Assembly: GCA_017501025.1 (NCBI GenBank)
Contig: JAFVXS010000246.1
Coordinates: 1-33,577 of the forward strand
Source: Alistipes sp.
GTDB lineage: Bacteria; Bacteroidota; Bacteroidia; Bacteroidales; Rikenellaceae
DNA: 33,577 nucleotides
Direction: 5' to 3'
The notes beneath the pieces were generated by a model. The model saw only the letters and a program-made list of their open reading frames with translations. It did not search any database and had not been told where the DNA came from. The position numbers and the translations under genes are program-made. Below, piece after piece: positions 6,550-26,121 of the stretch (the first letter of the stretch is position 1; every line of letters starts with the position of its first letter).

Positions 6550-6607
6550 TTTTTTACAGACCCCCTCCGCTTCGCTCGTCCCCCTAACTTCGGGGGACAA
6601 TAGTTTT
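6550..6607 (-). repeat. REP-like double-hairpin repeat, copy 2
   Basis: Exact 58-bp direct repeat of 5945-6002 (offset 605 bp), just upstream of the DUF559 start. Confidence 0.9.
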
Positions 6608-6715
6608 GCCGCCCTGCGGCAAAGGCTACACCGATAAGGGTTGTTAAGGGTTGTTAGCGGTATTCTCTGCCACCGACCTTACCCGACCTTATTCAACCTT
6701 ATCCTCGGCGGCTTT
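6605..6715 (+). repeat. Modular clamped tandem-array element, copy A (head + Z + Y modules)
   Basis: Head hairpin tttgccgc-cct-gcggcaaa; Z array taagggttgt x2; Y array gaccttaccc/gaccttattc/aaccttatcc between gccaccga and tcggcggc. Confidence 0.8.
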
Positions 6716-6728
6716 TTATCCGCTACTG

Positions 6729-6736
6729 CAAAGATA
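6729..6736 (-). promoter_or_regulatory. Bacteroidota sigmaA -7 box (TAtcTTTG) facing DUF559/ygiQ
   Basis: caaagata on + is TATCTTTG on -, matching the TAnnTTTG consensus. Overlaps the left end of the 6732-6853 element. Confidence 0.55.
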
Positions 6737-6853
6737 GTGAATAAAAAGATGAAGTTCAAGGCTTGCGAAACCCGAAAAACCGCAGCATACTTGCCGTATG
6801 TGAGGATTTTGAGGGTGAGCGTAACGCAGAAATTCGCTTTTTATTCGCTATCT
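6732..6853. mobile_element. MITE-like long imperfect hairpin element E1 (122 bp)
   Basis: Terminal inverted repeats agatagtgaataaaaag / ctttttattcgctatct (16/17). Nested internal stems around catac-ttgcc-gtatg. Mobility is inferred. Confidence 0.65.
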
Positions 6854-6860
6854 ACTCCCG

Positions 6861-7994
6861 CTATGCGTTCTGTACACTCTTCGAGTAGTTATCCCATCGC
6901 TCGATGACCGTTGCAAAATCTGTCGGAATAGGCGACTCGAAGGTCATCTCCTCGCCGGTCGTCGGATGCACAAAGCCCAACATTCGGGCGTGCAGGGCGT
7001 GACGAGGCATTATCTCGAAGCAATTTTCGATAAACTGCTTATACTTCGAGAAGGTTGTTCCCTTCAAAATCTTATCGCCACCATATCGCTCGTCGTTGAA
7101 CAACGGATGACCTATATACTGCATATGAACACGAATCTGATGCGTACGTCCCGTTTCGAGTCGGCACTCGACCAACGTCACATAGCCGTAGCGTCGCAGC
7201 ACTTTGTAGTGCGTCACGGCGTGCTTACCCTCCGAGCCGTCGGCAAAGACATACATCTGGTGGCGATTACGCGGATTACGACCGATATTGCCCGTAATCG
7301 TACCCTCGTCATCCGCCAGATTACCCCAAACCAACGCCACATAGCGACGACGTGTAGTATGCTCGAAGAATTGGCGTGACAGTTTGTTGCAGGCAACCTC
7401 ATTCTTGCCGACAACCAATATTCCCGATGTATTTTTGTCTATACGATGCACCAAACCCGCACGCTCGTTGCCCTGCTGGAACATCGGATTATCCTGCAAA
7501 TGGAAGGTCAGGGCATTAACCAACGTGCCACAGAAGTTGCCGTGTCCCGGATGAACGCACATTCCCGCCTCCTTGTTTACGACAATCACATCGTCATCCT
7601 CGTAGAGGATATCTATCGGAATATCCTCGGGTGTAAGTGCCACCTCGTAGCGTGGGTATGCCATACGCAACGAGATTTGGTCGAACGGTTTAATCTTGTA
7701 GGAGGCCTTCTGCGGGCGGTTGTTCACAAAGACATTACCCTCGTCGATTGCTGTCTGGATGCGATTGCGGGAGCAGTTCTCCATATGCATCGACAGATAC
7801 TTGTCGAGTCGCATCATCGACTGACCCTTATCAACCGTCACCGCAAAGTGTTCGTAAAGTCCGTGTTCGTCGGGGGTATGATCGCCCAAAAAACGACGAG
7901 GCTCCGCGGCGACAATATCGTCATCGTCGTCGAGCATCGCTCCTTCGTCGATATCTACCTCCGCATCGACCAATATATCCTCCTGATACTCCAT
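6861..7994 (-). CDS. rluD: RluA-family 23S rRNA pseudouridine synthase (RluD-like)
   Basis: S4 domain (RLDKYL..SRNRIQ), VVNKEAGMCVHPG, catalytic VHRIDKNTSG, LETGRTHQIRVH, ALHARMLGFVHP. Acidic N-terminal extension. Confidence 0.92.
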   Translation of the reverse strand: MEYQEDILVDAEVDIDEGAMLDDDDDIVAAEPRRFLGDHTPDEHGLYEHFAVTVDKGQSMMRLDKYLSMHMENCSRNRIQTAIDEGNVFVNNRPQKASYKIKPFDQISLRMAYPRYEVALTPEDIPIDILYEDDDVIVVNKEAGMCVHPGHGNFCGTLVNALTFHLQDNPMFQQGNERAGLVHRIDKNTSGILVVGKNEVACNKLSRQFFEHTTRRRYVALVWGNLADDEGTITGNIGRNPRNRHQMYVFADGSEGKHAVTHYKVLRRYGYVTLVECRLETGRTHQIRVHMQYIGHPLFNDERYGGDKILKGTTFSKYKQFIENCFEIMPRHALHARMLGFVHPTTGEEMTFESPIPTDFATVIERWDNYSKSVQNA

Positions 7995-8003
7995 AATCTC
8001 GAT

Positions 8004-8966
8004 TTAGAAAAACTCCTGTTCAGCAGCACTCCTGCCTACGGTATGCACCTCTTGACGGACACGATTGAGCGAATCCAAACGCTGCACCTCACGCAACGAG
8101 TCTGCCGCAATCTTGGCGAGTTGCAACATCTCCATACGCTCGTTTTCTGCCGCGACAGCCCTCTCTATCGCCTCTGCCGATTGTGTCAGTCGCATCGAAA
8201 CCCTCGTACCGAACTCCACCAACGAATCCTGCGATATCGATTGCTCACAAACTCGGGCATCGCTCTGGTTTTGTAGCGTAACATCGCTCTCGAAGATGAC
8301 TTCACCAACATTCAAACCCATCTCCCACAAGCGACTTTTCGCCTCGAAAAGGTGACGACCCAACAACATCGGAACGGCTGTAACATTCTCGCCGGCACTA
8401 ACACCTACGGTCAAAGTGATACCACTGCCCTGCTCCGCCATAACTGCTGCCGAATCGGGCAAAATCTGCTCACCGTTGTAGTGTTGTGCCAAGACATAGT
8501 TGGTTGCTATATCATCCGTATAGACCAACTCTTTGATGGTAAAGCCGACACTCTCCAATATACTCTTTGCCTGACGCAACGAACGCTCGGCAACATAAGG
8601 CACTGCCATTCGACGTTGTGCCGAGGCGTTGATGGTAACATAAATCTTACGCCCCTTCTTTACAAAAACCTCCTTGTGTGGAAGTTGGTCCAAGACCGTT
8701 CCGCCTGCAACATTGCGAACATAGAGAGAGTCGTTGATTACCACCTCCAAACCACAATGCGAGGCGTAATACTCGGCATCGTCGATATGCAGACCCACCA
8801 AATTTGGCACGCTTTGACGTGTGCCGTGACGTGTGCCGATAGTCAGCATAATGTGCGAAAGTATCAGCAAAGCTGCCACAAAACAGACAATCCACAAAGC
8901 GTGTCTTATGATTGTGTGACGTGACAGCCACCCATTAACCTCTGTCGTTCTACGCTTTTTAGCCAT
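8004..8966 (-). CDS. PASTA-domain membrane protein
   Basis: N-terminal TM helix, TRHG, three repeats starting VPNLVG / VPYVAE / VPMLLG. Lies upstream of rluD, as is common in Bacteroidota. Confidence 0.88.
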   Translation of the reverse strand: MAKKRRTTEVNGWLSRHTIIRHALWIVCFVAALLILSHIMLTIGTRHGTRQSVPNLVGLHIDDAEYYASHCGLEVVINDSLYVRNVAGGTVLDQLPHKEVFVKKGRKIYVTINASAQRRMAVPYVAERSLRQAKSILESVGFTIKELVYTDDIATNYVLAQHYNGEQILPDSAAVMAEQGSGITLTVGVSAGENVTAVPMLLGRHLFEAKSRLWEMGLNVGEVIFESDVTLQNQSDARVCEQSISQDSLVEFGTRVSMRLTQSAEAIERAVAAENERMEMLQLAKIAADSLREVQRLDSLNRVRQEVHTVGRSAAEQEFF

Positions 8967-8971
8967 ATCTT

Positions 8972-10051
8972 TTATCGTTTTATCTCGTTATAGTGCGTAT
9001 CTCGCTCCACCGCACGAAATCCCGCTGTACGACACATCTGCTCGATTTCGGCAATGGTAATCATCGGACGCACATCCGCAGCACCTGCCATCGAATATAT
9101 CTTTGTCGAGTCGTCAATCGTACCATCCACATCATCGGCTCCGAATGCCAAAGCCAACTCCGCCACCTGCTTGCCATACATAACCCAATAGGCCTTTATG
9201 TGGGGAATATTATCCAAAATTATGCGGCTCATAGCCAATGTACGCAAATCATCCGTTACGGAGGTCTCGCCAATCGACGACATCTCATTATGGCGACTGC
9301 GGTACTTCAACGGAATAAATGCGTTAAATCCGCCCGACAAATCCTGTTGATGACGCAGACGCAAAAGATGGTCGATGCGATGTTCCACCTGCTCGATATG
9401 TCCATACAACATCGTTGCATTCGACGAAATACCCAATCGGTGTGCTGCTCCGTGCAGTGCAAGCCACTCTTCGGCGGTACACTTCTTCGGGCAGATGCGT
9501 TGTCGCAGTACCTCGTCAAAAATCTCGGCACCTCCGCCCGGGATAGACTCCATACCAGCCTCTTTCAACAACGACAAGCCCTCCTCCAACGATAAACCTG
9601 CCTTGCAAATCATATGGTGCAACTCCGCTGCCGTAAAGGCCTTGATACAGACATCGGGCATAATGCGGGCTATATTGCGAATCATATCGGCATAGTAGTA
9701 GATATCGCGGTCGGGATGAACTCCACCGACGATATGTATCTCGGTAGCACCACTATTACGACGGCTCTCGACATCCCGCAAAATCTCATCCATCGAGTAG
9801 TCCCAACTACCCTCTTCACCACGACGACGGCGATAGGAGCAGAACTTGCAGTCGAAGATACAGACATTCGACGGCTCGATATGGAAATTGCGGTTATAAA
9901 AGACCTTATCGCCACTCTTGCGACGTTTCAGTTCGACAGCCAACTCCGCCAAATGCCACAACGGAGCCTCACGCCACAGTATCAGTGCCTCGGCTGCATC
10001 GATACGCTCGCCACCGCTGACCTTTGCTACTACTTTATCGAGTGATGTCAT
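8972..10051 (-). CDS. mqnE: Aminofutalosine synthase MqnE (CofH/MqnC-family radical SAM)
   Basis: NRNFHIEPSNVCIFDCKFCSY, EIHIVGGVHP, KAFTAAE, SIPGGGAEIF, NATMLYGHIE, HIKAYWVM, GADDVDGT, ERDTHYN. Confidence 0.85.
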   Translation of the reverse strand: MTSLDKVVAKVSGGERIDAAEALILWREAPLWHLAELAVELKRRKSGDKVFYNRNFHIEPSNVCIFDCKFCSYRRRRGEEGSWDYSMDEILRDVESRRNSGATEIHIVGGVHPDRDIYYYADMIRNIARIMPDVCIKAFTAAELHHMICKAGLSLEEGLSLLKEAGMESIPGGGAEIFDEVLRQRICPKKCTAEEWLALHGAAHRLGISSNATMLYGHIEQVEHRIDHLLRLRHQQDLSGGFNAFIPLKYRSRHNEMSSIGETSVTDDLRTLAMSRIILDNIPHIKAYWVMYGKQVAELALAFGADDVDGTIDDSTKIYSMAGAADVRPMITIAEIEQMCRTAGFRAVERDTHYNEIKR

Positions 10052-10052
10052 A

Positions 10053-11183
10053 CTATTTCGGTGCTTTGCGATAGAGATAAATTCCGACCATCAAAAAGAG
10101 TACGTTCGGCAGCCACACTGCCAATGCAACAGGCATAGAACCACCCTTTGCAAACTCTTCGAATACTCGTGTCAGCATAATATACGAGAAACAGAGTGCT
10201 ATACCGATACCGAGGTGTGCACCCGTTCCGCCTCGCACCTTACGCGACGAGAGCGATACGCCAATCAGTGTCAGGATAAACGTTCCGAATGGATAGGCAA
10301 AGCGGGTATGGTGTTCAACCTCAATCTGTCGGAGCGAATCGGAGCCCTTCGACCGCTGCTGCTCCAAGAAGGTGTTCAGTTCGACAATATTCATCGTTTT
10401 TAGCAGCTCGCCCAAACGACCCAACTCCACAACATCGAGGTTGATAATCGTATCGAGATTACGCTGCTGCACAAAGCTCTCGTTACCCTCCTTGTCGAAC
10501 GTACGCTCGGTATATCGCTGACCACTCCAACGCTTTGTTTCGGGATTAAATCGAACATCCGATGCCTCCAATACTGCCACCACACGATTATTTTCGAAAC
10601 GCTCCAACACAAAGAATGACGCCACCGAACTCGACTTGCTGAAACCTCGAATATAGGCAAACGTTCCCGGCTCGATTTGGCGGTAGATATGGCGGTCGTA
10701 CTGCTCACGGGCTCGACGTGGGATATACTTCTGCTCGAATGCCACGCAATCCTGCTGCGAGATAGGTATCAACCACAGACTCATAACCAACGATATGGTG
10801 GTAATGATGGTCGCACCAACAAAATATGGCCACATCAATCGACGGAAACTCATACCACCCGACAACATCGCCACAATCTCGGTCTGATACGCCAGCTTCG
10901 AGGTAAAGAAGATTACGGCAATAAAGGTAAAGAGTGCCGAGAATTGATTGACAAAGAATGGTATAAACTTCAAGTAGTAGTCGAAAATCACAGCCGATAC
11001 GGGAGCGTGTGTCGCCGTAAAGTCGTCAATCTTCTCGACATAGTCAAAGACCACAACCACGACGATAATCATCGCTATCGCAAAGAGATATGTTCCGACA
11101 AACTTGCCGATAATATAGCGGTCCAAAATCTTCAAGCCCGGAAACCAGGATTGTCGTGCGTTATATTCGGGTTTCATTGCCAT
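10053..11183 (-). CDS. LptF/LptG LPS export permease
   Basis: KILDRYIIGKF, TEIVAMLSGGMSFRRL, FAYPF..ILTLIGVSL, AVWLPN. Confidence 0.9.
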   Translation of the reverse strand: MAMKPEYNARQSWFPGLKILDRYIIGKFVGTYLFAIAMIIVVVVVFDYVEKIDDFTATHAPVSAVIFDYYLKFIPFFVNQFSALFTFIAVIFFTSKLAYQTEIVAMLSGGMSFRRLMWPYFVGATIITTISLVMSLWLIPISQQDCVAFEQKYIPRRAREQYDRHIYRQIEPGTFAYIRGFSKSSSVASFFVLERFENNRVVAVLEASDVRFNPETKRWSGQRYTERTFDKEGNESFVQQRNLDTIINLDVVELGRLGELLKTMNIVELNTFLEQQRSKGSDSLRQIEVEHHTRFAYPFGTFILTLIGVSLSSRKVRGGTGAHLGIGIALCFSYIMLTRVFEEFAKGGSMPVALAVWLPNVLFLMVGIYLYRKAPK

Positions 11184-11205
11184 AGTTATCTGCTCTTTTC
11201 AAATT

Positions 11206-12336
11206 TTACAATCGTTGCGAAAGGCGTACCACCATCTGCTCCTTCCACTCGGCAAAGTCGCCTGCCAAGATATGTTTGCGAGCCTCGCCAACAAGCCACA
11301 AATAGAATCCCACATTGTGCATCGAAGCGATTTGAGCCGCCAGCATCTCGCCACATACTACCAAATGGTGAAGATATGCCTTCGTATAGCACCTATCGAC
11401 AAAGGTTGTACCCGCAGGGTCGATAGGCGAAAAGTCGTTCTCCCACTTTTTGTTGCGGATATTTATCACGCCCTCACTCGTAAAGAGTTGTCCGTTGCGT
11501 CCGTTGCGGGTAGGCATCACGCAATCGAACATATCCACACCTCGGGCAATACCCTCCAAAATGTTTATCGGAGTACCTACACCCATCAGATAGCGTGGCT
11601 TATCCTGTGGCAGAACAGCATTTACAACCTCAATCATCGCATACATAACGTCGGTCGGCTCGCCTACTGCCAAACCACCAATAGCATAGCCATCGGCATC
11701 GTACTGCAAGACATTCTCCGCCGCCTTTGCTCGCAAATCGGCATAGCAACACCCCTGAACAATCGGGAACAACGACTGCGAGTGTCCATATTTAGGCGAG
11801 GTCTTGTGATACTGATTGAAACAACGCTCCAACCAACGCTCGGTCAGTGCCAACGACTTTGCGGCATAGTCACGCGGAGCATCCCCCGGAGGGCACTCGT
11901 CGAATGCCATCATAATATCGGCACCGATAGTTCGTTCGGTATCAATCACACTTTCGGGTGTAAAGAGGTGACGCGAACCGTCGATATGCGATTGGAAGTG
12001 ACAACCCTCCTCCTTCAAACGACGACACGCCGCCAGCGAAAAAACCTGAAATCCGCCACTGTCGGTGAGCATAGGTCGCTCCCACGACGAGAAGCGATGC
12101 ACACCACCCGCCTCCTCCAAAATCTTCATTCCGGGACGCAGGTAGAGGTGGTATGTATTTGCAAGGATGATTTGTGCCTTGACCTCATCGACCATATCGC
12201 GATGGAATATGCCCTTCATCGCAGCAGCAGTACCCACAGGCATAAAAATCGGAGTCTGCACCGTACCGTGGTCGGTCGTAAAGCTGCCCGCACGAGCAGC
12301 CGTTTTACTATCTTTACACTCTAAAACAAACTTCAT
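11206..12336 (-). CDS. tgt: Queuine tRNA-ribosyltransferase
   Basis: TPIFMPVGT, LANTYHL, LTDSGGFQVFSL, MAFDEC, IGGLAVGE, YLMGVG, DMFDCVMPTRNGRNG. Start placed at ATG 12336 (MKFVLECK). Confidence 0.97.
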   Translation of the reverse strand: MKFVLECKDSKTAARAGSFTTDHGTVQTPIFMPVGTAAAMKGIFHRDMVDEVKAQIILANTYHLYLRPGMKILEEAGGVHRFSSWERPMLTDSGGFQVFSLAACRRLKEEGCHFQSHIDGSRHLFTPESVIDTERTIGADIMMAFDECPPGDAPRDYAAKSLALTERWLERCFNQYHKTSPKYGHSQSLFPIVQGCCYADLRAKAAENVLQYDADGYAIGGLAVGEPTDVMYAMIEVVNAVLPQDKPRYLMGVGTPINILEGIARGVDMFDCVMPTRNGRNGQLFTSEGVINIRNKKWENDFSPIDPAGTTFVDRCYTKAYLHHLVVCGEMLAAQIASMHNVGFYLWLVGEARKHILAGDFAEWKEQMVVRLSQRL

Positions 12337-12342
12337 AGCGGA

Positions 12343-12350
12343 CAAAGATA
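12343..12350 (-). promoter_or_regulatory. -7 promoter box (TATCTTTG) of tgt
   Basis: caaagata on +; 6 nt upstream of the tgt ATG. Confidence 0.6.
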
Positions 12351-12423
12351 GTGATTTTCCTACAATATGACAACTCGCCAAGCAACTATTTAGTTGCTTG
12401 ACACAAAATTGGTCAAAACCTGC

Positions 12424-13323
12424 CTAAAATGACATTGGGGCTTTGATGGTCGGATGGGGGTCATAACCCTCCAATGTGAAGTCCTCGAAACGGAAGTCGA
12501 AGATTGACTTCACATCGGGGTTGAGCTTCATCACCGGCAACTTGCGAGGCTCGCGTTGCAACTGCTCGGCGGCCTGTTCCAAGTGGTTGAGATAGAGGTG
12601 TGTATCGCCCATCGTATGGATAAACTCACCCACTCCCAAACCACAAACCTGTGCAATCATCATCGTCAGCAGTGCATACGATGCGATATTGAACGGAACA
12701 CCCAAAAACGTATCACACGAACGCTGGTAGAGTTGGCACGACAGACGTCCGTCGGCAACATAGAATTGGAACAAGACGTGACAAGGCGGCAGTGCCATAT
12801 CCTCGATATCGGCAACATTCCACGCCGAGACAATCATACGACGCGAATCGGGATTTTCACGAATAGTACGCACAACATCGGCAATCTGATCTATTGCCGA
12901 GCCGTCGAGTCGTCCCCACTGTCGCCACTGATGACCGTAAACGTGGTTCAAATCGCCGAAACGATAGCCCTCGATTGGCGAGTCGATACCCTCCGATGCT
13001 GCCTTCAAAAACTCCTCTCGGGTTACGGGCAATACACTATGGCGGCAACACAACTCGTTGTAGTAGCGGTATGCGTCGTTATCCCAGATATGCACATCGT
13101 TATCGACCAGATATTTGATGTTGGTATCGCCCTTCAAAAACCACAACAACTCGTGGATAATACCTCGCAAAAAGACACGCTTGGTGGTAAGCAACGGGAA
13201 GCCCTCGTTCAAATCGAATCGCATTTGGTGACCAAACACGCTCTTTGTTCCCGTTCCTGTGCGGTCACTCTTGACCGTACCCTCGGTGGTAATGCGTTTC
13301 AGAAGGTCGAGATACTGTTTCAT
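12424..13323 (-). CDS. thyA: Thymidylate synthase (long form)
   Basis: [60 protein letters not shown]. Confidence 0.97.
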
Positions 13324-13341
13324 ACGGAATAACGCTATTTA

Positions 13342-14073
13342 TTACTCAAAATTTTTCTGCTCAACGTTGCCCTCCCCATCAATCTGCACATAGTTCGGAC
13401 AGCTATGCCAATCGCCCATAAAACGCACTTTGTACGACGGAGTATCAAACGCTGCCGTAGCGTGCATATGTCCAAATATGAAGAGGTCGATTTTATGCTC
13501 TGCCGCATAGCTCTCGGCATAGTCACACAGTGGTTGCAAGTGTGCCTCGTAGTTGGAGTCTTTGTGCGATTTTCGGGAACATCCGCTCCACCAACAACCA
13601 AATTTCAATGCGAGGTCGGGGTGAATAAGCCACGCAAACAGAAATCGCAATACACGCGAACGGAAAACCCAATTAAGCAGTTTCAACAATGGTTGTCCGT
13701 TGATATTCATATTGTCGCCGTGAGCCACGAACAGTCGAAGATTTGCAACCGAAAACTCTTGTGGTTTTTTGTAAAGTTCCACACCGCACTCTCGTTGCAG
13801 ATAGTCGCACTGCCACATATCGTGATTGCCCGTAAGATAGACTATTCGCACGCCCTTATCGTGAAGAGCGGCCAATCGTCCCAACACCCTCACAAAACCC
13901 TTTGGAACAACGCGATTATACTCAAACCAAAAGTCGAATATATCGCCAACCAAAAAGAGCATCTCCGCATCGTCGGCAATAGTATCGAGCCAACGACAAA
14001 ACCGTTGCTCGACTGTGCGTGCATCCTCCGCAGCACCGCCTCCGAGGTGTATATCCGATACGAAGTAGTACAT
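13342..14073 (-). CDS. lpxH: UDP-2,3-diacylglucosamine diphosphatase
   Basis: Calcineurin-like motifs SDIHLG, GDIFDFW, GNHD, HGD, GHMH, GDW. Confidence 0.85.
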   Translation of the reverse strand: MYYFVSDIHLGGGAAEDARTVEQRFCRWLDTIADDAEMLFLVGDIFDFWFEYNRVVPKGFVRVLGRLAALHDKGVRIVYLTGNHDMWQCDYLQRECGVELYKKPQEFSVANLRLFVAHGDNMNINGQPLLKLLNWVFRSRVLRFLFAWLIHPDLALKFGCWWSGCSRKSHKDSNYEAHLQPLCDYAESYAAEHKIDLFIFGHMHATAAFDTPSYKVRFMGDWHSCPNYVQIDGEGNVEQKNFE

Positions 14074-14084
14074 AGTGTATTGAT

Positions 14085-15215: not shown

Positions 15216-15301
15216 AAAAGATGTTCTAAAACTTCGTAAAAATAGTCATTTTCCCTTAAAACGACAAATTCTTGCCATCTATTGTGTCGAAGAGACACCT
15301 A

Positions 15302-15982
15302 TTAACGCCCCTGTTGCTGATTGCGATGGTGATTTTTTGCGGTGTGTGTTCGCTGTTGGGTCTTCTGTTTCGACTTCTGCTGCTGTCGTTTTGCACCCTT
15401 TGCCGATTGATGCTGCTGATGGTTGTTTTTGTAGTCGTTTCGGAGCAAATTCAGAGCATTTTCATCGAGTTCGATACCATTTCCGGACATTGTACGTATA
15501 TCCTTTATAATCACCTCGTTATTCGGGTGGTCGAGGTTGTATTCGAAGCTCTTGATACGCATATATCTCGCGATATTATCGACCGCATTACGCACCCCCT
15601 CGGCATTGTCGCTATGAGCCAAAAATTTGAGCAGACGCGCAACATACTTGCCATAGTGTTTGAACGATATTTTGCTCTGCGGGTATGGCATCGGATGGGG
15701 CTTAACCATAACACTCTCGCGAGTAGGGAGAGCGTATGGGCTATCGACATCCAACTGAAAATCAGACATTATGAAGAGGTGGTCCCACAGTTTGTGGGTG
15801 AAATCTGCCGTATCACGCAACAGCGGATTGAGATTTCCCATAACGGCAATTACCGCCTTTGCCTGACGTGTTCGCTCGGTGCGGTCCTCGATTTCGAGCA
15901 ACGAATCGACCATCTCCTGAATATGGCGACCATACTCGGGCAGATACAATTTTCGACGTGTGTAGTTATAATTTTTTTTCAT
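15302..15982 (-). CDS. DUF4290-domain protein
   Basis: YNYTRRKLYLPEYGRHIQEMV, KLWDHLFIMSDFQLDVDSPY, HYGK; basic, Gln-rich tail. Confidence 0.9.
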   Translation of the reverse strand: MKKNYNYTRRKLYLPEYGRHIQEMVDSLLEIEDRTERTRQAKAVIAVMGNLNPLLRDTADFTHKLWDHLFIMSDFQLDVDSPYALPTRESVMVKPHPMPYPQSKISFKHYGKYVARLLKFLAHSDNAEGVRNAVDNIARYMRIKSFEYNLDHPNNEVIIKDIRTMSGNGIELDENALNLLRNDYKNNHQQHQSAKGAKRQQQKSKQKTQQRTHTAKNHHRNQQQGR

Positions 15983-16139: not shown

Positions 16140-16147
16140 CAAATATA
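16140..16147 (-). promoter_or_regulatory. -7 promoter box (TATATTTG) for the DUF4290 gene
   Basis: caaatata on +, in the divergent intergenic region. Implies a ~150-nt leader. Confidence 0.5.
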
Positions 16148-17324: not shown

Positions 17325-17416
17325 TATCGTAGGCAGCCGATGTGGCTATCGCCGATACGACATTTATGACGACGCTTTGCTTTACGACGGCGGGATTACA
17401 GCCCTTAATAACGAGT

Positions 17417-17512
17417 TTGCTGCTTTGCAGCAACGGCTTTGCCGATGACGGTTGTTAAGGGTTTTCTGCCCGTCCCTAAACTCGCTAACTTCTCTAAACT
17501 CCCTTCACGGCA
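17417..17512 (+). repeat. Modular clamped tandem-array element, copy B (head + short Z + X)
   Basis: Head hairpin ttgctgc-ttt-gcagcaa then cggctttgccga; gacggttgttaagggtt; X array tccctaaac/tcgctaact/tctctaaac/tccct between tgcccgt and acggca. Confidence 0.7.
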
Positions 17513-17585
17513 CCGCTAACCACCATTCTTGACGCCATTTTTTCATATTTTCCGCCCATCTTTTTGTCATTGCAATTATATTCGC

Positions 17586-17593
17586 TATCTTTG
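17586..17593 (+). promoter_or_regulatory. -7 promoter box (TATCTTTG) of the TonB receptor gene
   Basis: Exact TAnnTTTG match 9 nt before ATG 17603. Confidence 0.6.
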
Positions 17594-17602
17594 CCATAAT
17601 TT

Positions 17603-19951
17603 ATGGCAAGATATATCGATATACGGAACCGTTTGGTCGGAGCAGTCACTCTCGTTTTGCTGCTCTTTGCTGGACAATTTGCAGCCAATGCCGACAACTT
17701 GCCATATACAACGCATCACGCAACATTGCTCGGTGCCGACACCCTTGTATCGATGCAGAGTATCGAAGTGAGTGCCATCAAACAGAACGACTCGGCTTTG
17801 GAGGCGGCATCGACCACCACCCTCAACGCCAAAGAGGTTGAACAGAGGGCAATATATGGCGTAAAAGATGCCCTGTCACACGCCCCCAACCTCTTTATGC
17901 CGAACTACGGCTCACGAATGACCTCGTCGATATATGTGCGTGGTATGGGCACCCGTATCGAGCAGCCTGTCGTGGGTCTGAATATCGATAACCTACCCGT
18001 AGCCGACAAAAATATGTACGATGTGTTGTTGCCCGATATCGAGCGAATCGAAATCATCCGAGGTCCGCAATCGACGCTCTATGGCCGCAATACTATGGGT
18101 GGCGTGATAAATCTCTATACCACCTCGCCACTGCAATATCAGGGTGTCCGCATAGCCGGCGAGTATGGCTCACGCAACGAGTATCGTCTGGCACTGTCGG
18201 CATACAACCGCTTCGGCAACAATGTCGGATTGTCGATTGCCACACAATTCTCGCACAGCGACGGTCACTTCCGCAACACATATAACAACCGATTGTGCGA
18301 CCACGAAAAGAGTGGCGATGTCCGCATAAAATTTCAATATCGTCGCAGTGCTTTGAGTATCGACAACGTAACGTGGCTATCGACCGTAAAGCAGGGAGGT
18401 TATCCATACGCCTATATGGGTTCGCTCTCGGCAACAGAGCCATATCCTGACCTTATCGGCAAGGTGTGCTACAACGACGAGGCTTCGTATCGTCGCATCG
18501 GCATCAACGACTGTCTGACCATTCGATACGATTGGCAAAAGGTCTCGTTAGCATCGACCACAAGCTATCAATATCTGGACGACAAGATGGTGCTTGACCA
18601 AGATTTTCTGCCACTCTCGATATTTACGCTCGAACAGGCAAAACGTCAGCACGACGTTACCGAGGAGTTGATACTCCGTTCCCGCTCATCGTCGCCCTAT
18701 CAATGGCTGTGCGGAGCGATGCTCTTCTACAAAAACCAGCAGATGTCGGCTCCCGTAGAGTTCCTCAAAGAGGGTATCGACCGACTGATTCTCGAAAACG
18801 TAAATAAACATAGCGGCTACGACGGCACCTACCATTGGGGACGAGAGGATGGCTCGCTCGGCGAGACGTTGTGGCTCGGCAGCGACTTTATGACCCACAC
18901 ATTTGGTGCGGCACTCTATCACCAATCGTCGTACCGCCTCAACCGTTGGCTCTTTACGTTGGGTCTGCGTTTCGACTACGAAGGTGTACAGATGCGGTAT
19001 CGTAACCGTGCCGACTACTACTATACCGCCTTCCCGAACGACAGCAGCAAAAATATCAACGAGGTGCATCAAACAATAGACGATAGCGATATCCTTTCGC
19101 AGCGTTTCTTTGAGATACTGCCAAAGCTCTCTGTTGCCGTAGAGTTGGGACAAAAGCACCAACACAAACTCTACCTCTCGGCATCGAAGGGCTACAAGGC
19201 TGGTGGTTTCAATACGCAGATGTTCTCGGAGGTGTTGCAACGACGCATACAGGACCAGATGGGTATGGCTGCCGACCTCGATGTCGAAAATATCATAAAA
19301 TATAAGCCCGAGGAGAGTTGGAATATCGAGTTGGGCGGACATTTTGAGAGTCGCGATGCACAATTTTCATCCGATATTACGTTATTCTGGATAGAGTGTT
19401 TCGACCAACAGCTGACCGTATTCCCCGCAGGTACTACTACGGGACGAATGATGACCAATGCAGGACGCTCACGCAGCGTAGGCGTGGAGGCGGCTTTGAA
19501 GTGGCAACCTCACAAGAACGTAGCCATCGCCGCTTCGTATGGCTTTACCGATGCACGTTTCCGCCGCTTCGTAAGTGGCAAAAACGACTATCAGGGAGAG
19601 TTTGTGCCATACGCACCACAACACACCCTCACTGCTCGTCTGAACTATCGGATACCACTACGTTCCGAGTGGTTGGATTCGGTAGAGTTGGGCATATCGC
19701 TCAACGGAGCAGGTCGCATATATTGGAACGAACGCAACGACTTCTCGCAGCCGTTCTATGCTTTGGTCGATGCCTCGGCACGCCTTAACGGAGCAAATTG
19801 GGCGGTAGAGATATGGGCTCGAAATCTGACAGACGCTCGCTACGACACCTTCTATTTCGAGTCGATGAGTAACAGATTTTTACAATGCGGACGACCTCTG
19901 ACCGTAGGCATCAGAGCCTCGATTGAGTTGTTCGCAAACCGAAGTGAATAA
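17603..19951 (+). CDS. TonB-dependent outer-membrane receptor (non-SusC type)
   Basis: Signal peptide; plug motifs IYVRGMG and IERIEIIRGPQSTLYGRNTMGGVINL; SKGYKAGGFN, YKPEES.NIELG, TNAGRS.S.GVE, WARNL.D.RY. Confidence 0.92.
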   Translation: MARYIDIRNRLVGAVTLVLLLFAGQFAANADNLPYTTHHATLLGADTLVSMQSIEVSAIKQNDSALEAASTTTLNAKEVEQRAIYGVKDALSHAPNLFMPNYGSRMTSSIYVRGMGTRIEQPVVGLNIDNLPVADKNMYDVLLPDIERIEIIRGPQSTLYGRNTMGGVINLYTTSPLQYQGVRIAGEYGSRNEYRLALSAYNRFGNNVGLSIATQFSHSDGHFRNTYNNRLCDHEKSGDVRIKFQYRRSALSIDNVTWLSTVKQGGYPYAYMGSLSATEPYPDLIGKVCYNDEASYRRIGINDCLTIRYDWQKVSLASTTSYQYLDDKMVLDQDFLPLSIFTLEQAKRQHDVTEELILRSRSSSPYQWLCGAMLFYKNQQMSAPVEFLKEGIDRLILENVNKHSGYDGTYHWGREDGSLGETLWLGSDFMTHTFGAALYHQSSYRLNRWLFTLGLRFDYEGVQMRYRNRADYYYTAFPNDSSKNINEVHQTIDDSDILSQRFFEILPKLSVAVELGQKHQHKLYLSASKGYKAGGFNTQMFSEVLQRRIQDQMGMAADLDVENIIKYKPEESWNIELGGHFESRDAQFSSDITLFWIECFDQQLTVFPAGTTTGRMMTNAGRSRSVGVEAALKWQPHKNVAIAASYGFTDARFRRFVSGKNDYQGEFVPYAPQHTLTARLNYRIPLRSEWLDSVELGISLNGAGRIYWNERNDFSQPFYALVDASARLNGANWAVEIWARNLTDARYDTFYFESMSNRFLQCGRPLTVGIRASIELFANRSE

Positions 19952-19986
19952 GTATAGAGTTATTGATAATAAATTTTTGAAAAGCT

Positions 19987-20490
19987 ATGAAAAAGATTCT
20001 TTTGATTGCCGCAGCACTCTTTGCGGCCGTAGGATGTATGAAGGATGATGGTCCTAACCAAAAGTGGGAGCGTACGCTCGATGCTGTCGCCGTTACGGTA
20101 AACACCACAACCGATGTTAAGTTTGAGGACCAAATCGAGGTTAGAATTATTCAGGACGACGTTACAAAGAGTTCGTTGTCGTTCGAGTTGAAGGGTATTC
20201 AGTTTGTTCCGATGATGCCTTCGGTAAACTTTATGTTGTTAAACCTTCCTTTTAAGCTCTACGACCACAAGGGCGACACAACCGACCCTCTCTACAACTC
20301 GTGGGTATTCAACGAGGCACAAGTTGTTCCACAAGTAGGCGGTGTTGAGCGAACAGACTACACTATGCACAACGTAAAGGGTAACTTCTCCGATACGGGT
20401 CTTAAATTGGAGTTTGACGTAAACTTTGCAGGAGCTGTTTACCACGCAACAATCGACACATCGATAGAACTTGAAGAGGAGGAGAAGTAA
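19987..20490 (+). CDS. Small beta-rich lipoprotein (calycin/lipocalin-like), probable receptor partner
   Basis: MKKILL...AAVG-C-MKDD lipoprotein signal with acidic residues after the Cys; IQFVPMMP motif; directly downstream of the TonB receptor. Confidence 0.6.
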   Translation: MKKILLIAAALFAAVGCMKDDGPNQKWERTLDAVAVTVNTTTDVKFEDQIEVRIIQDDVTKSSLSFELKGIQFVPMMPSVNFMLLNLPFKLYDHKGDTTDPLYNSWVFNEAQVVPQVGGVERTDYTMHNVKGNFSDTGLKLEFDVNFAGAVYHATIDTSIELEEEEK

Positions 20491-20491
20491 A

Positions 20492-21346
20492 ATGCGTAGC
20501 GAGTATATCCCATACGTCGATAAGCTGATAGAGTTGGCTATCGAGGAGGATTTGGGCGATGGCGACCACACCTCATTGTGTTGTATCCCTGCGACCGAAC
20601 GCGGACGTATGCGTCTGCTCTGCAAGGAGGAGGGTATTATTGCCGGTATCGAAGTTGCCGAGCGTATTTTGAGTCGTCTCGACAGTTCGGTGCAGATTGA
20701 GAAGATTCTTGCGGATGGCGACCGTGTAAAGCCGGGAGATGTGGCATTCTATGTCGAGGGTCGTTTGCAGTCGTTGTTGCAGGCAGAGCGTATTCTGCTC
20801 AATGTTATGCAGCGAATGAGTGGCGTAGCAACGCAGACCGCAATCTATGCCGACCGCATTGCCGACCTCCACACCAAAGTTCTCGATACCCGCAAAACAA
20901 CTCCAGGTATGCGAGTATTGGACAAGATGGCGGTAAAGATTGGCGGTGGCGAAAATCACCGTATCGGCCTCTTCGATATGATTCTGCTCAAAGATAACCA
21001 CATCGACTTTGCAGGAGGTGTGCGTCAGGCGGTAAGCGGAGCAAAACAATATCTCGCCGAGCGTAACAAAAACATCCCAATCGAGTGCGAGGTGCGTACG
21101 CTCGAAAATATCGACGAGGTCTTTGCTGCGGGCGGTTGCGACCGTATTATGTTCGACAACTTCTCGGTTGAGCAGACACGTTTGGCTGTCGAGAAGGTGG
21201 CGGGTCGTTGCCAAACCGAATCGAGTGGCGGTATCACACTCGACACGCTGCGTGACTATGCCGAAACGGGTGTCGATTTTATCTCTGTTGGTGCTTTGAC
21301 CCACCAAATCAAGTCGCTCGATATGTCGCTTAAAGCGTGCGAGTAA
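20492..21346 (+). CDS. nadC: Nicotinate-nucleotide pyrophosphorylase (carboxylating)
   Basis: EDLGDGDHTS, AERILLN, LDTRKTTPG.R, NHRIGLFDMILLKDNH, ECEV, IMFDN, ESSGGI, ISVGALTH. Start at ATG 20492. Confidence 0.97.
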   Translation: MRSEYIPYVDKLIELAIEEDLGDGDHTSLCCIPATERGRMRLLCKEEGIIAGIEVAERILSRLDSSVQIEKILADGDRVKPGDVAFYVEGRLQSLLQAERILLNVMQRMSGVATQTAIYADRIADLHTKVLDTRKTTPGMRVLDKMAVKIGGGENHRIGLFDMILLKDNHIDFAGGVRQAVSGAKQYLAERNKNIPIECEVRTLENIDEVFAAGGCDRIMFDNFSVEQTRLAVEKVAGRCQTESSGGITLDTLRDYAETGVDFISVGALTHQIKSLDMSLKACE

Positions 21347-21385
21347 CCAAAAACAGAGAGCATATACACTCTTTAATAAATTCGA

Positions 21386-23344
21386 ATGATGAGTCGCCTG
21401 AACGAGTCACAACTACCATATCCGTTGTGGAACATATACCGCATAGTGCTTATCTATGCACTGTTTATGGTGTGTCGTATTGTCTTCACACTCTACAATC
21501 TCTCTGCTTTCGGGGAGTTTGAGGGGAGTGAGATATGGGATTTAGTGGTCGGAGGTCTGCGTTTCGATACGATATCGATAGCCTATGCGTTCAGCTTGTG
21601 GGCATTGATGGCATTTCTACCGCTGAAAATTCGCAGCGAGAGGTGGTATCGCAACGCAATGTTCGGCTGCTATATGGTCGTTGTGGCGATATGTGTGGCT
21701 GTAAATTTTGCCGATGCAATCTACTTTCGCTATGTTCAGAAGCGATTTACTGCCGAAGAGATATTCTTTGCCGACAACTCCAACTCGCTACAACTCATAG
21801 GCAAATTTGCCATCGAAAATCTGCACTTGGTAGCAATCGGCATCGCCCTGATTCTCGTAGTTGGGTGGGCATATCGTCGCAATAAGGTGCCGATGGTACT
21901 ACTTCGCGGTATCTACTACTATATCGGCTCGCTACTGCTGTTGTTGGTGGTAGTTGCCATCGCCATAGGAGGTATTCGTGGCGGCTGGACCCGTATGGCA
22001 CGTCCGACGGCTATCCCATATTCGCTGAAATTTGCCCGTACGGGAGCCAAAGCCAATATAGTATTGAGCAATCCGTTCTGCATTATCCGTACCGCAGGCG
22101 ACAGCAAAGTTGCCGTTCCGCAATACTTCGACGAGGCTGAACTCTCGCAAATCTATCAGCCATACCACTACCCCGCACCGAGCGACGATGGCTCGTCATT
22201 CTATGGGACAGAGCGCCCGAATATCGTTGTGATGGTATTGGAGAGTATGTCGGCAGAGCACTCCGCCCTACTGCGTCCCGATATCTATTCGCGAGAGGGA
22301 GAGCCGAAAGAGGGCTACACACCATTCCTCGACTCGCTTATGCAGCACAGCCTCTGCTTCGAGCGGATGTATGCCAACGGAAAACGCTCGATTCAGGCGC
22401 TGCCCTCGGTGTGGGCATCCATTCCGTCGCTCGATAAGCCGTTTGTGCTGATGAGTGAATCGCTCGGAGAGAGCCGCCCCCTGCCAAAAATAGTTGCAGA
22501 CGAGGGCTACTCAACAACCTTCTTCTGCGGCTCGGAGCGTGGCTCGATGGGTTTCGATGCCTATGCTCTCTCGGCAGGCTTCACGCGATGTGTCAGCAAG
22601 GAGGATTACGAGGCTCGGTATGGAACAGATGACTTCGATGGCTATTGGGGCATCTGGGACCACCGCTTTATAGACTTTATGGGCGAAGAGATTGGTCAAA
22701 TGCAGGAGCCATTCCTCGCCTCGATATTTACCACCACGTCGCACCATCCGTTTGTCACTCCCGACGATTGGAAAGCTATTTTGCCACAGGGCAAGACCCC
22801 TATGCAACCTTGTGCCGCATATCTCGACCGAACACTCCGTAATTGGTTTGAGAAGTATCGCTCGGAGGAGTGGTTTAAGCGTACAATATTTCTATTTGTT
22901 GCCGACCACGTATCGTGCGAACGTTACGACGAACTGACTCAACTATCGCCGGGTGATTTGCACGTCATCGGCTTTATATACAAGGGCGATGGCTCGTTGC
23001 AGGGACGATATACTGCCCCCGCATCGCAAATCGACCTTATGCCGACTCTGCTCGGTCTGATGGGGTATGCCAAGCCATATTTCGCATACGGTCGCGATTT
23101 GAATAGTGAGAGTCGCTTCAAAGAGGTTGTGGTGTGGGATAACGAGCTCTTCAAAGCATTTGATGAGTCATACTCCTACATCTTCAACAACGACAAAATC
23201 GAGGAGGTGCGAACAGCCGACGGCAGCCAAATCGCTACGGAGCAGCCCGACTCGGCAGCACTCGCCCAAACCGAGCAACGCATCAAGGCCTATATTCAGC
23301 AGTACTATCGCCACATAGAGCAGAAGAGCTATGTGGTGAGGTAG
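21386..23344 (+). CDS. LTA synthase family / sulfatase-like membrane phosphotransferase
   Basis: Five N-terminal TM segments with GLRFD; NIVVMVLES, YTPFLDSL, ANGKRSIQA, TTTSHHPF, FVADH, SQIDLMPTLL. Confidence 0.88.
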   Translation: MMSRLNESQLPYPLWNIYRIVLIYALFMVCRIVFTLYNLSAFGEFEGSEIWDLVVGGLRFDTISIAYAFSLWALMAFLPLKIRSERWYRNAMFGCYMVVVAICVAVNFADAIYFRYVQKRFTAEEIFFADNSNSLQLIGKFAIENLHLVAIGIALILVVGWAYRRNKVPMVLLRGIYYYIGSLLLLLVVVAIAIGGIRGGWTRMARPTAIPYSLKFARTGAKANIVLSNPFCIIRTAGDSKVAVPQYFDEAELSQIYQPYHYPAPSDDGSSFYGTERPNIVVMVLESMSAEHSALLRPDIYSREGEPKEGYTPFLDSLMQHSLCFERMYANGKRSIQALPSVWASIPSLDKPFVLMSESLGESRPLPKIVADEGYSTTFFCGSERGSMGFDAYALSAGFTRCVSKEDYEARYGTDDFDGYWGIWDHRFIDFMGEEIGQMQEPFLASIFTTTSHHPFVTPDDWKAILPQGKTPMQPCAAYLDRTLRNWFEKYRSEEWFKRTIFLFVADHVSCERYDELTQLSPGDLHVIGFIYKGDGSLQGRYTAPASQIDLMPTLLGLMGYAKPYFAYGRDLNSESRFKEVVVWDNELFKAFDESYSYIFNNDKIEEVRTADGSQIATEQPDSAALAQTEQRIKAYIQQYYRHIEQKSYVVR

Positions 23345-23355
23345 GTATGTCACTG

Positions 23356-23543
23356 CGAAGGGAGTTTAGGGAGTTTAGAGAGTTTAGGGAATTTAGAGAG
23401 TTCAGAGAGTTCAGAGAGGGCGACCAAAGCCGCCGAGGATAGGGTCAAATAAGGTCAAGTAAGGTCTTTTAAGGTCAGATAAGGTCGGCGGCGGGAAACA
23501 CCGCTAACGCCTCTAACGGCTCTAACGCCCCTAACACCCCTTA
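23356..23543 (-). repeat. Modular clamped tandem-array element, copy C (inverted; Z + Y + X)
   Basis: On +: agggagttt-type 9-mer x6+ (23359-23418); taaggtcnnn 10-mer x5 (23440-23486) between gccgccga and tcggcggc; ctaacgccy-type 9-mer x4 (23504-23539). Confidence 0.88.
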
Positions 23544-23556
23544 TATACATATATAT

Positions 23557-23602
23557 AAAAATAGATTGGGGAGCAACCGAAACTGCTCCCCAATCCTATT
23601 TT
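23557..23602. terminator. Bidirectional intrinsic terminator between the convergent sulfatase and mdh genes
   Basis: 12-bp perfect stem gattggggagca / tgctccccaatc, 8-nt loop, A-run on the left and T-run on the right. Confidence 0.85.
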
Positions 23603-23616
23603 ACAAAAGCCCGATA

Positions 23617-24570
23617 CTACAAAGCACCAATTTCGTACAAAGCACCATTTACGGCACGTACTGCGTCAGCCGATGCAGCGAACTTCGCCTTCTCGTCATC
23701 GGTGAGGTCGATCTTAACAATCTTCTCAACACCCTTCTTACCCAATACAACAGGTACGCCCAAGCAGATATCCTCCTGACCATACTCGCCTTCGAGCAAT
23801 ACCGAGCAAGGAACGATAGCCTTGGTGTCGTTTACGATAGCATCAACAACCGATGCTCCCGCTGCACCCGGTGCATACCAAGCCGAAGTACCCAACATCT
23901 TTGTAAGGGTAGCACCACCAACCATAGTGTCGGCAGCAACCTGCTCCAACTTCTTCTTCGAGATGAGCTTTGTTACAGGCACACCCTTAATCGAAGCCTT
24001 CGATACGAGAGGAATCATAGTAGTATCGCCGTGACCGCCGATAACCATACCATCGATATCCTGAATACCGGCACCCGAAGCCTTCGAGAGGTAGCAACGG
24101 AAACGCGACGAATCCAATGCACCACCCATACCGATAATGCGACGCTTTGCAACACCCGAAGCCTTCAATGCAAGGTAGGTCATTGTATCCATAGGGTTCG
24201 AGATGATAACGAAGATAGCCTTTGGCGACCACTTGATAGCGTTCTCAACAACACCCTTAACAATCTTTGCGTTGATACCGATCAGCTCCTCACGAGTCAT
24301 ACCCGGCTTACGAGGAATACCCGAAGTGATAACGATAACATCCGAGTTTGCGGTTGCCTTGTAACCCTCTGCATCGAGAGCAGTTACACCTACCAACTTG
24401 GTCTTGTAACCGATGGTAGCCGATGCCTGGAACATATCCAACATCTTACCCTCGGAGAGACCCTCTTTGATATCTACCAAAACAACTTCGCTCGCAATAC
24501 CGCGGCAAGCCAATACATTAGCACAGGTTGCACCAACCATACCTGCACCTACAACTGTAACTTTTGACAT
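23617..24570 (-). CDS. mdh: Malate dehydrogenase
   Basis: VTVVGAGMVG, TSGIPRKPGMTREEL (MDH Arg), ISNPMD, LDSSRF, IGGHGD, GTSAWYAPG. Confidence 0.96.
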   Translation of the reverse strand: MSKVTVVGAGMVGATCANVLACRGIASEVVLVDIKEGLSEGKMLDMFQASATIGYKTKLVGVTALDAEGYKATANSDVIVITSGIPRKPGMTREELIGINAKIVKGVVENAIKWSPKAIFVIISNPMDTMTYLALKASGVAKRRIIGMGGALDSSRFRCYLSKASGAGIQDIDGMVIGGHGDTTMIPLVSKASIKGVPVTKLISKKKLEQVAADTMVGGATLTKMLGTSAWYAPGAAGASVVDAIVNDTKAIVPCSVLLEGEYGQEDICLGVPVVLGKKGVEKIVKIDLTDDEKAKFAASADAVRAVNGALYEIGAL

Positions 24571-24611
24571 AACTTTTTGATATTTTAGAATTGTTTGAAA
24601 ATTTCAATCCG

Positions 24612-24995
24612 CTATTTTGCAATGAAAGCAGCATAGTCCTCTGCCGACATCAGAGCCTCAACCTCCGACGCATCCGACATACGCACCTTAATCATCCAAC
24701 CCTCGCCGTATGGGTCACTATTGACCAATGCAGGGTCGGCATCGATTGCAGCATTAACCTCCTCAACCGTGCCCGATACAGGAGTAAAAGCATCCGATAC
24801 GGTCTTGACAGCCTCGATTGTTCCGAAAACATCGCCGGCAGCCAAAGTCTCGCCCTCGGTAGGGATGTCCACAAATACGATATCGCCCAACTCGCTCTGG
24901 GCAAAATCTGTAATGCCGATATAGGCATACTCGCCCTCCACACGACACCACTCGTGGTCGTTGGAGTACTTCAAATTCGATGGTAAATTAGCCAT
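24612..24995 (-). CDS. gcvH: Glycine cleavage system H (lipoyl carrier) protein
   Basis: YSNDHEW, IGITDFAQSELGDIVFV, IEAVKTVSD (lipoyl Lys), NSDPYGEGW. Confidence 0.97.
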   Translation of the reverse strand: MANLPSNLKYSNDHEWCRVEGEYAYIGITDFAQSELGDIVFVDIPTEGETLAAGDVFGTIEAVKTVSDAFTPVSGTVEEVNAAIDADPALVNSDPYGEGWMIKVRMSDASEVEALMSAEDYAAFIAK

Positions 24996-25045
24996 AACTT
25001 ATATATGTTTTTGCGTTGTTTGCTCGCAGATGTACTAAATTCGTG

Positions 25046-25053
25046 CAAATATA
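25046..25053 (-). promoter_or_regulatory. -7 promoter box (TATATTTG) for gcvH-mdh
   Basis: caaatata on +, ~50 nt upstream of the gcvH ATG, in an AT-rich spacer. Confidence 0.55.
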
Positions 25054-25121
25054 ATAATTTTTTTGCGATATTGTTATTTTCATAACAATTTTACATTACA
25101 TTCGCCCGTTTTCTCCGTTTT

Positions 25122-25853
25122 TTACGATTTTTGCCCGCCAATTACGAACTCTATCTCTTTGAAAAGGAACGACTCTCGCCCATAGGCATCGCTCTCGATG
25201 ATAAGTTCTCCGTGCGGCATAACCTCACAGAGCCGACCCTCGAACGGTGTTCCGTCGGCACGTCGATACGGAGCCTTTATGCCTCGTCGATAGAGTCGCG
25301 AATTGTACTCCTCGCAAAGGGTTGCCGCATCGTCCGCTTTCAGAGCATCGTAACGCCGTGTAAAAGCTCGCTGGAAGCAGCATAAAACCTCCTCCAAATC
25401 GAGTCTTCGTCCCAACTCCAACGCCATAGAGGTCGGGTTGGGCAGAGCATCCGAAAAACTTTGCTGATTGACATTTATTCCGATGCCGACAATCGTGCGT
25501 TGCAGTATTGCCGAAATCGACTGATGTTCGATAAGAATACCCACGATTTTGTTGTCGCCGACGTAGATATCGTTGGTCCATTTTACGGAGGTTTCGAGAC
25601 CGTACTCCGCGAAGATATCACAGAGCGATAATGCTATGGTTTGCAACAACTTAAACTGCTCCGTAGTGGGCAAAAATGTAGGCGTCAGCACCATCGAAAA
25701 TGTGAGATTTTCGCCCGCAACACTCTCCCACGAATGACCCCGCTGACCACGCCCCGCAGTCTGTCGTCGGGCAACGATGATATCGCCCTCCGAATAGCGA
25801 AAATCGCGGGCCTCATCGTTGGTTGATTGAAGTGTATCGAAGTGGTAAATCAT
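25122..25853 (-). CDS. birA: Biotin-protein ligase (no N-terminal HTH)
   Basis: STNDEA, QTAGRGQRG..W, VKWTNDI, KIVGILIE, GIGINVNQ. Start at ATG 25853 (MIYHFDT). Confidence 0.93.
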   Translation of the reverse strand: MIYHFDTLQSTNDEARDFRYSEGDIIVARRQTAGRGQRGHSWESVAGENLTFSMVLTPTFLPTTEQFKLLQTIALSLCDIFAEYGLETSVKWTNDIYVGDNKIVGILIEHQSISAILQRTIVGIGINVNQQSFSDALPNPTSMALELGRRLDLEEVLCCFQRAFTRRYDALKADDAATLCEEYNSRLYRRGIKAPYRRADGTPFEGRLCEVMPHGELIIESDAYGRESFLFKEIEFVIGGQKS

Positions 25854-25869
25854 ACTTTTTTTTATTTTT

Positions 25870-26121
25870 TGCGGCAACAGCTTCGCCGAAAAGGGTGATT
25901 AAAGGTGATTAAAGGCTGTTAATGGCGTTTTCGGCAGCCGCCCTTACTCGACCTTATCTGACCTTACCCGACTTTACTTGACCTTATTCTCGGCTGCCGC
26001 CGTGGTCGCTCTCCCTAAACTCCCTAAACTCCTTAAATTCCCTAATCTCCCTATTGCGGCGCCGCCTTTGGTCGCCCGTCCTAGTAGTCCTAGCTGTCCT
26101 ATTTGTCCTATTGCGGCGACC
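25870..26121 (+). repeat. Modular clamped tandem-array element, copy D (head + Z + Y + X + W)
   Basis: tgcggcaacagcttcgccga; aaaggtgatt-type 10-mer x3; gaccttannn 10-mer x5; ctccctaaa 9-mer x5; gtcctannn 9-mer x4; GC-rich inverted linkers. Confidence 0.9.

Follow-up and report, generated by a model that had tools for sequence, protein, structure and literature searches.

The stretch of Alistipes sp. DNA analysed here (33,577 nucleotides; the window) is contig C181 of an assembly, G000, of 1.23 Mb that is 58% complete. It carries four copies, A to D, of an intergenic repeat composed of short tandem arrays, and we found that each of the five modules used in these arrays (Z9, Z10, Y10, X9 and W9, named with their unit length) matches the arms flanking a different clade of one gene family, which encodes predicted four-helix-bundle proteins. 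The copies are mosaics made of arm units from five clades of cassettes, that is, of such genes with their arms. Cassettes and mosaics turn over, one module replaces another in a constant frame and unit number slips. The locus is explained in its origin, not in its chemistry. A preliminary description, made from the sequence of the window alone, had reported four copies and their module order, and both hold with slight changes at the edges (copy B now starts at 17416 and copy D at 25867):

6605..6715, copy A, in the rSAM-rluD interval: palindromic head (6605-6634), two Z10 units on the plus strand (6635-6654), hairpin spacer, three Y10 units on the minus strand (6672-6701), tail
17416..17512, copy B: head (17416-17445), degenerate Z10, three to four X9 units on the minus strand (about 17470-17504)
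23356..23543, copy C, inverted, between the convergent sulfatase and mdh genes: six X9 units on the plus strand (about 23358-23420), GCGACCA linker, five Y10 units on the plus strand (23440-23489), spacer, four Z9 units on the minus strand (23498-23541)
25867..26121, copy D, between birA and dapD: head (25867-25889), three Z10 units on the plus strand (25890-25919), then on the minus strand five Y10 units (25937-25986), five X9 units (26009-26053) and four W9 units (26075-26110)

The preliminary description had also read the copies as a non-autonomous, protein-linked element, which our data support; what it missed is that the modules are arms of one gene family, each module belonging to its own clade. 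Its single Z module has to be split, as the 10-bp Z of copies A and D (Z10) and the 9-bp Z of copy C (Z9) match different gene clades. It was right that the copies are not CRISPR, since they do not consist of 24-47-bp repeats with unique spacers, and a search of the whole window against Rfam returned no family match.

By scanning G000 for arrays of at least four units with a TARR core, we found 68 of them, compared to 2, 0, 2, 0 and 0 in five shuffled sequences. A module-specific scan gave 96 arrays in 43 clusters (1, 0 and 0 in three shuffles), confirming that copies are numerous genome-wide; W9 arrays were the most represented (38), followed by X9 (23), Y10 (21), Z9 (12) and Z10 (2). The units are non-palindromic 9-10-mers in tandem, heterogeneous within one array, and the period is 9 in 73 of the 96 arrays, which argues against both the helical-turn spacing and the phased binding on double-stranded DNA proposed earlier. 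We found no evidence for a meaning of the telomere-like look of X. Array order is structured. First, 21 of 53 neighbouring pairs are head-to-head and only 3 tail-to-tail. Second, a GCGACCA linker stands to the right of 17 of 38 W and 17 of 23 X arrays and of none of the 21 Y arrays, and GCCGA precedes 16 of 21 Y and 5 of 12 Z9 arrays. Third, the exact composite of W3 plus linker occurs 13 times in G000 and in none of 60 relatives drawn, its two-unit form being found twice in the sister species G256; therefore the linkers are lineage-specific. The repeats also break assemblies, with 13 of the 43 clusters found at contig ends, so that metagenome-assembled genomes (MAGs) probably contain more such cassettes than are counted.

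To relate arms to proteins, we surveyed 142 loci, 140 with a match of at least 140 residues; 129 were left after removing 11 duplicates, and 122 of these had at least 150 nt on each side. In 110 of the 122 homologues, a 7-12-bp tandem array lay no more than 200-220 nt from the gene, and 70 had arrays on both sides. As controls, such arrays were found inside the gene in 1 of 122, downstream of mdh in 1 of 27 relatives, and downstream of 45 of 805 long open reading frames (ORFs) in G000. With the 95th percentile of mismatched flank pairs as threshold, 79 of 121 homologues had upstream and downstream flanks that match in inverted orientation, and 66 had flanks that match in direct orientation. 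The cassettes have two layouts, either compact arms right around the ORF, or hairpin doublets on both sides and a promoter-like stretch ahead of the start. In some clades (L037, L090, L139, L147, L152, L154, L165 and L219) small hairpins stand between arm units, and the linkers of the G000 mosaics are hairpins of the same size.

On the protein tree, unit type clusters: 26 changes were counted, compared to a mean of 72.7 after shuffling, and none of 200 shuffles reached so low a number. Arm unit and four-helix-bundle clade go together in several Bacteroidales families, and the five modules are assigned as follows:

Z9 arms: clade L053-55 and L057
Z10 arms: clade L056, L058-61, L063 and L064
Y10 arms: clade L072 and L255
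X9 arms: clade L092-94 and L175
W9 arrays: clade L084, L086, L091, L150, L156 and L184

At the scale of the genus (375 other genomes), four-unit 9-mer arrays were present in 118 of 124 gene-positive genomes versus 48 of 251 gene-negative ones, and one of the six gene-positive exceptions, G255, has 70 Y10 matches and a Y-armed gene instead. When metagenomes were scanned for Y arrays ahead of a start codon, 42 loci were returned, one of them with the gene (L255) and the others mostly unrelated or eukaryote-like repeats. Two further loci were noted. In G314 (contig C58), two four-helix-bundle cassettes of different clades (L086 and L089) stand in tandem about 400 bp apart with adjoining arrays. 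L221 (G247:C51:42940-43383), a divergent four-helix-bundle gene with neither the family motif nor arms, occupies the site at which G099 carries a Z10-armed gene ahead of a cyclophilin-like gene.

G000 itself carries one complete cassette outside the window, on contig C93:

G000:C93:1825-2922 (equal to L001:667-1764), minus strand: four-helix-bundle "suffix" gene after pepP, fused in frame to mqnB

This gene is enclosed by a Z9 array and its mirror-image copy, and the RNA transcribed from it is predicted to form a stem of about 41 bp around the gene (z -7.55, 20 shuffles); the predicted fold of copy D alone has a z of -1.6. The cassette displaced the native start of mqnB, and its downstream arm now codes for a Pro/Asn/Ala linker in a 365-residue four-helix-bundle-MqnB fusion. 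Similar long open frames are seen in G005, G226 and G247. The protein scores 61.7 bits against TIGR04258 (cut-off 40) and 27.6 bits against TIGR02436 (cut-off 24), and 28.6 bits against PF05635, below the cut-off of 33.8. Its structure model (mean predicted local distance difference test, pLDDT, 91.4) has a four-helix-bundle fold like that of Xcc0516 and Avd. The closest structures are Xcc0516 (2gsc, Z 14.9, root-mean-square deviation 1.7, 110 aligned residues), BT_0352 (2rld, Z 12.3) and Avd (8ub7, Z 11.9; 4dwl, Z 11.2), with the caveat that unrelated helical bundles also reach Z 11.2. A Foldseek search with the model gave no match at E <= 0.001, and a search of PDB sequences with the single protein gave nothing meaningful; a profile search gave 2gsc at E 0.052. 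The model thus predicts an S23p/Avd four-helix bundle for this family, and the partner is among the candidates named in the preliminary description, which included small helical-bundle or Avd-like proteins. A second gene in G000 runs off the end of contig C30. The 42 residues that remain share 95-98% identity with X-armed homologues, and downstream of them lie X arrays.

Then, we compared the sites with those of G256, which is 95% identical to G000 at mdh. All 13 compared sites differ in presence or module content, so that the arrays are not fixed across species. At the site of copy A, the whole rSAM-rluD interval of about 940 bp is reduced to about 26 bp in G256; copy B is replaced by a Z9 module; copy C reads W1-Y5-Z4 instead of X6-Y5-Z4; and copy D is missing X and W. 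Empty sites are also found further away: of 11 other relatives in which birA and dapD are both visible, 7 have a gap of 9-25 nt between them, and two carry different arrays. Starting from the other side, 9 of 18 G256 loci picked for their arrays could be aligned to G000 and all nine differ, three of the alignments being poor. At C43, an X5 array in G256 takes the place of the W4 array of G000 between identical linkers, an exchange of X and W in one linker frame that is also seen at the site of copy C, and C66 shows the loss of a block between direct linkers. In addition, L255 retains an intact Y-armed cassette; from the G256 copy, about 350 bp have been deleted between short microhomologies, which is a step on the way to arms without a gene. 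Heptamer arrays stand at the same intergenic sites (birA-dapD, pepP-mqnB and rSAM-rluD) in other species of the genus (L103, L227 and L276). A mosaic at G000:C23:799-960 stands where the sister locus L199 is still coding and may have truncated a gene; the alignment there is poor.

Turnover is also visible between strains, as judged on contigs from four sequencing runs containing this species (X1, X2, X4 and X19). The C93 cassette is present at the pepP-mqnB site in run X2 and in G005, G226 and G247, and the site is empty in runs X1, X4 and X19, as well as in all seven relatives retrieved out of ten searched. The empty allele has 25-26 nt with the native mqnB start in place of 652 nt. At this site, the one resolved, we saw no target-site duplication. 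Since the empty allele of the RNA run X19 is the allele of the DNA run X1, the empty form is not due to RNA excision. Unit number varies between strains as well, in agreement with the preliminary description, one 9-bp X unit of copy C being missing at 23395 in run X2. In run X1, one contig follows the sulfatase gene up to the stop codon (23344) and then departs from the window; its next 1655 nt do not resemble copy C and may represent a larger insertion at this site in that strain. Apparent joints between copies C and D in strain contigs were rejected as cross-mapping of repeats.

Together, these data suggest that the arrays are likely REPIN/BIME-like non-autonomous arms of a mobile cassette with no recognisable transposase. 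(BIMEs are bacterial interspersed mosaic elements and REPINs doublets of repetitive extragenic palindromes, REPs.) We consider it somewhat probable that the copies are gene-less derivatives, mosaics of the inverted-arm units of five cassette clades, whose modules are swapped by recombination across shared linkers and whose copying is promoted by binding of a pentamer. In this mechanism, each four-helix-bundle protein would form a pentamer, by likeness to its solved relatives, and the pentamer would bind the purine-rich single strand, RNA or single-stranded DNA, of a cognate array of 4-5 units with about one unit per subunit. Binding may then recruit host recombination or repair, by which an arm or the whole cassette would be copied to new intergenic sites without target duplication. 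Slippage would alter unit number. As several clades pass through one lineage, their arms would pile up and recombine into BIME-like mosaics, and modules could be swapped among the dispersed copies via the shared linkers. A bolder extension, which we find tentative and rather doubtful, is that this represents a transposase-free class of mobile element, in which Avd-fold pentamers each recognise their own 9-10-mer array and drive the copying of gene and gene-less arms, the mosaics being the record of five elements swapping modules.

Several observations weigh against this mechanism. The C93 protein has no known catalytic domain, and binding and mobilisation of the cassette are inferred rather than observed. 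The modal unit count is 4 rather than 5 (26 of 38 W, 10 of 21 Y and 7 of 12 Z9 arrays), except for X (5 in 11 of 23), and many mosaics pair unlike arms that cannot form a long stem. The pattern of filled and empty alleles is also compatible with repeated loss or ordinary allele exchange. G000, 58% complete as it is, yielded no W, Z10 or Y gene. The 48 gene-negative genomes with arrays, mostly incomplete MAGs, have up to 91 matches; G141 (90% complete) has 31 Y matches and no four-helix-bundle gene, and G127 (98% complete) has 57 Y matches and only an X-clade gene. The protein tree is a quick one with unit labels from our own patterns, 53 of 129 being "other" and a few mislabelled, and both tree clustering and co-occurrence overstate independence because kin share gene and arrays. 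Finally, residue-to-base mutual information over 38 representatives gave no consistent column, with noisy phasing and confounding by kinship.

The first alternative is an RNA route that starts with transcription of the cassette together with its arms. The stem would be excised in the manner of an rRNA intervening sequence (IVS), and the Avd-like protein would recruit in trans a reverse transcriptase (RT) to copy cassette and arms back into DNA. The predicted fold fits, as Avd is the RT partner in diversity-generating retroelements (DGRs), and so does the IVS-like stem at C93, RNase III cutting and tandem heptamers being described for the Coxiella IVS in the available part of PMC4990558. However, among six array-rich genomes, all incomplete, RVT_1 (PF00078) was matched in G314 and G127 and not in G000, G256, G255 and G185. 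This, together with the heterogeneity of the units, also speaks against the reiterative templated synthesis by an RT suggested earlier. Moreover, the C93 site has no target duplication and its empty form is a DNA allele. We consider this route unlikely, and less likely than the mobile-cassette explanation.

A second alternative takes the protein as an RNA-binding regulator and the arrays as selected 3'-end signals for stability or processing, rather than selfish sequences. In its favour, only 3 of the 43 clusters lie inside ORFs, nearly all being intergenic, and clusters are enriched between convergent genes (14 of the 28 with ORFs on both sides, compared to 51 of 245 in the background). However, REP-type selfish repeats have the same convergent-gene bias, all 13 compared sites differ from the sister species, and the gene is polymorphic between strains and decayed in G256. 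We hold this alternative to be improbable.

About as improbable is that another enzyme, either a DUF559 nuclease or a transposase of the HUH/RAYT type (RAYT, REP-associated tyrosine transposase), moves hairpin-linker units with which the four-helix-bundle genes and arrays ride along. The linkers are indeed small hairpins, and a DUF559 gene element stands next to copy A:

5945..6607, minus strand: DUF559 gene element, with the gene at 6156-6539, identical 58-bp direct repeats at 5945-6002 and 6550-6607, and an inverted copy at about 6100-6150

A DUF559 arm was also seen inside a G256 mosaic (L209). However, there is one DUF559 gene, and the repeat on its flanks is a distinct one of which G000 has only two occurrences; DUF559 nucleases, among the candidates named earlier, do not account for the arrays. 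The element is separate from the arrays, with copy A abutting on it, and it is absent from this site in G256. It appears to resemble the boxC/DUF559 pairing of enterobacteria. In addition, Y1_Tnp (PF01797) was not matched in the 58% of the genome that G000 covers, and the arm unit follows the four-helix-bundle clade. Lastly, neutral decay of the variable-number tandem repeat type, with arrays born by slippage and spread by ectopic recombination alone with no protein, is very improbable: it accounts for unit-number changes, deletions between direct linkers (C66) and arrays persisting where the gene was not found, but leaves unexplained the inverted arms at 110 of 122 loci, the clade-specific units and the mere 6 of 124 gene-positive genomes without 9-mer arrays.

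Two other repeats were noted in the window. At about 6716-6860, an imperfect palindrome of about 130 bp has a ACGTATGTGAG core that occurs 10 times in G000 and no Rfam match; in several relatives, elements related to it stand downstream of mdh. After dapD (26139-26305), two 44-bp direct repeats, 93% alike, stand 123 bp apart, and G256 has a similar duplicated unit.

To our knowledge, no function is known for the S23p/IVS four-helix-bundle family, of which structures have been solved, and we know of no driver of dispersed short tandem arrays in bacteria. With five kinds of unit each paired with a protein clade, alleles with and without the cassette in the same species and an intermediate of deletion, this one genome makes cognate binding and DNA movement directly testable. 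If true, a transposase-free class of element would give this family a function and explain the dispersed short tandem arrays of Bacteroidales, and small proteins with exchangeable specificity for short repeats would serve as a scaffold for nucleic-acid binding.

In a literature search that covered few subscription journals, we found no description of the arms of four-helix-bundle genes or of these mosaics. In the part of PMC3936711 available, such genes are noted as insertions in cas operons and arms go unmentioned. The closest case to the build of the C93 cassette is the 23S rRNA IVS of Coxiella burnetii, for which the available text of PMC4990558 gives a 28-bp terminal stem, RNase III cutting and tandem heptamers of variable number ahead of the S23p ORF, and cites ORF-bearing rRNA IVSs of Leptospira. 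Both share the fold and family (TIGR02436, with PF05635 weak), a gene in the loop of an inverted-end stem, strain-variable short tandem repeats beside the ORF and a patchy distribution. In contrast to an rRNA IVS, the C93 cassette lies between protein genes, pepP and mqnB, and not in a 23S or 16S rRNA gene, is fused to one of them, has a TIGR04258 suffix and 9-10-mer arms, and has dozens of gene-less mosaics.

For DGRs, the accessible text on the Avd pentamer (bioRxiv 10.1101/2023.10.23.563531; PDB 4dwl, 8ub7) reports that flipped-out RNA bases are inserted between protomers, the same residues acting in different protomers, which gives a precedent for a base-reading pentamer of similar fold (Z 11.2-11.9). 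However, there is no RT, template or variable repeat beside the C93 gene, whose neighbours are pepP and mqnB and whose assembly, incomplete as it is, has no RVT_1 match, and the protein has a helical insertion and a C-terminal suffix.

The dispersed short tandem arrays with inserted mini-hairpins of cyanobacteria (short tandemly repeated repetitive sequences, STRR, and small dispersed repeats, SDR) seem similar too, but are heptamers from a different phylum. In REP/REPIN-RAYT systems and BIMEs, as far as PMC3116915 and PMC3733652 are available, a repeat class flanks its own partner gene and spreads as inverted doublets and mosaics in intergenic space. The arrays described here are likewise scattered in intergenic space as inverted doublets and mosaics, some of whose sites are empty in relatives, whereas they are tandem 9-10-mers rather than imperfect palindromes of 20-60 bp, their partner is a four-helix bundle rather than a HUH tyrosine transposase, and their mosaics mix the arms of several clades. 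The locus joins an IVS-type cassette build with a REPIN/BIME-type spread and is a member of neither; what it adds is a five-clade mosaic, module swaps and an empty site at the level of strains.

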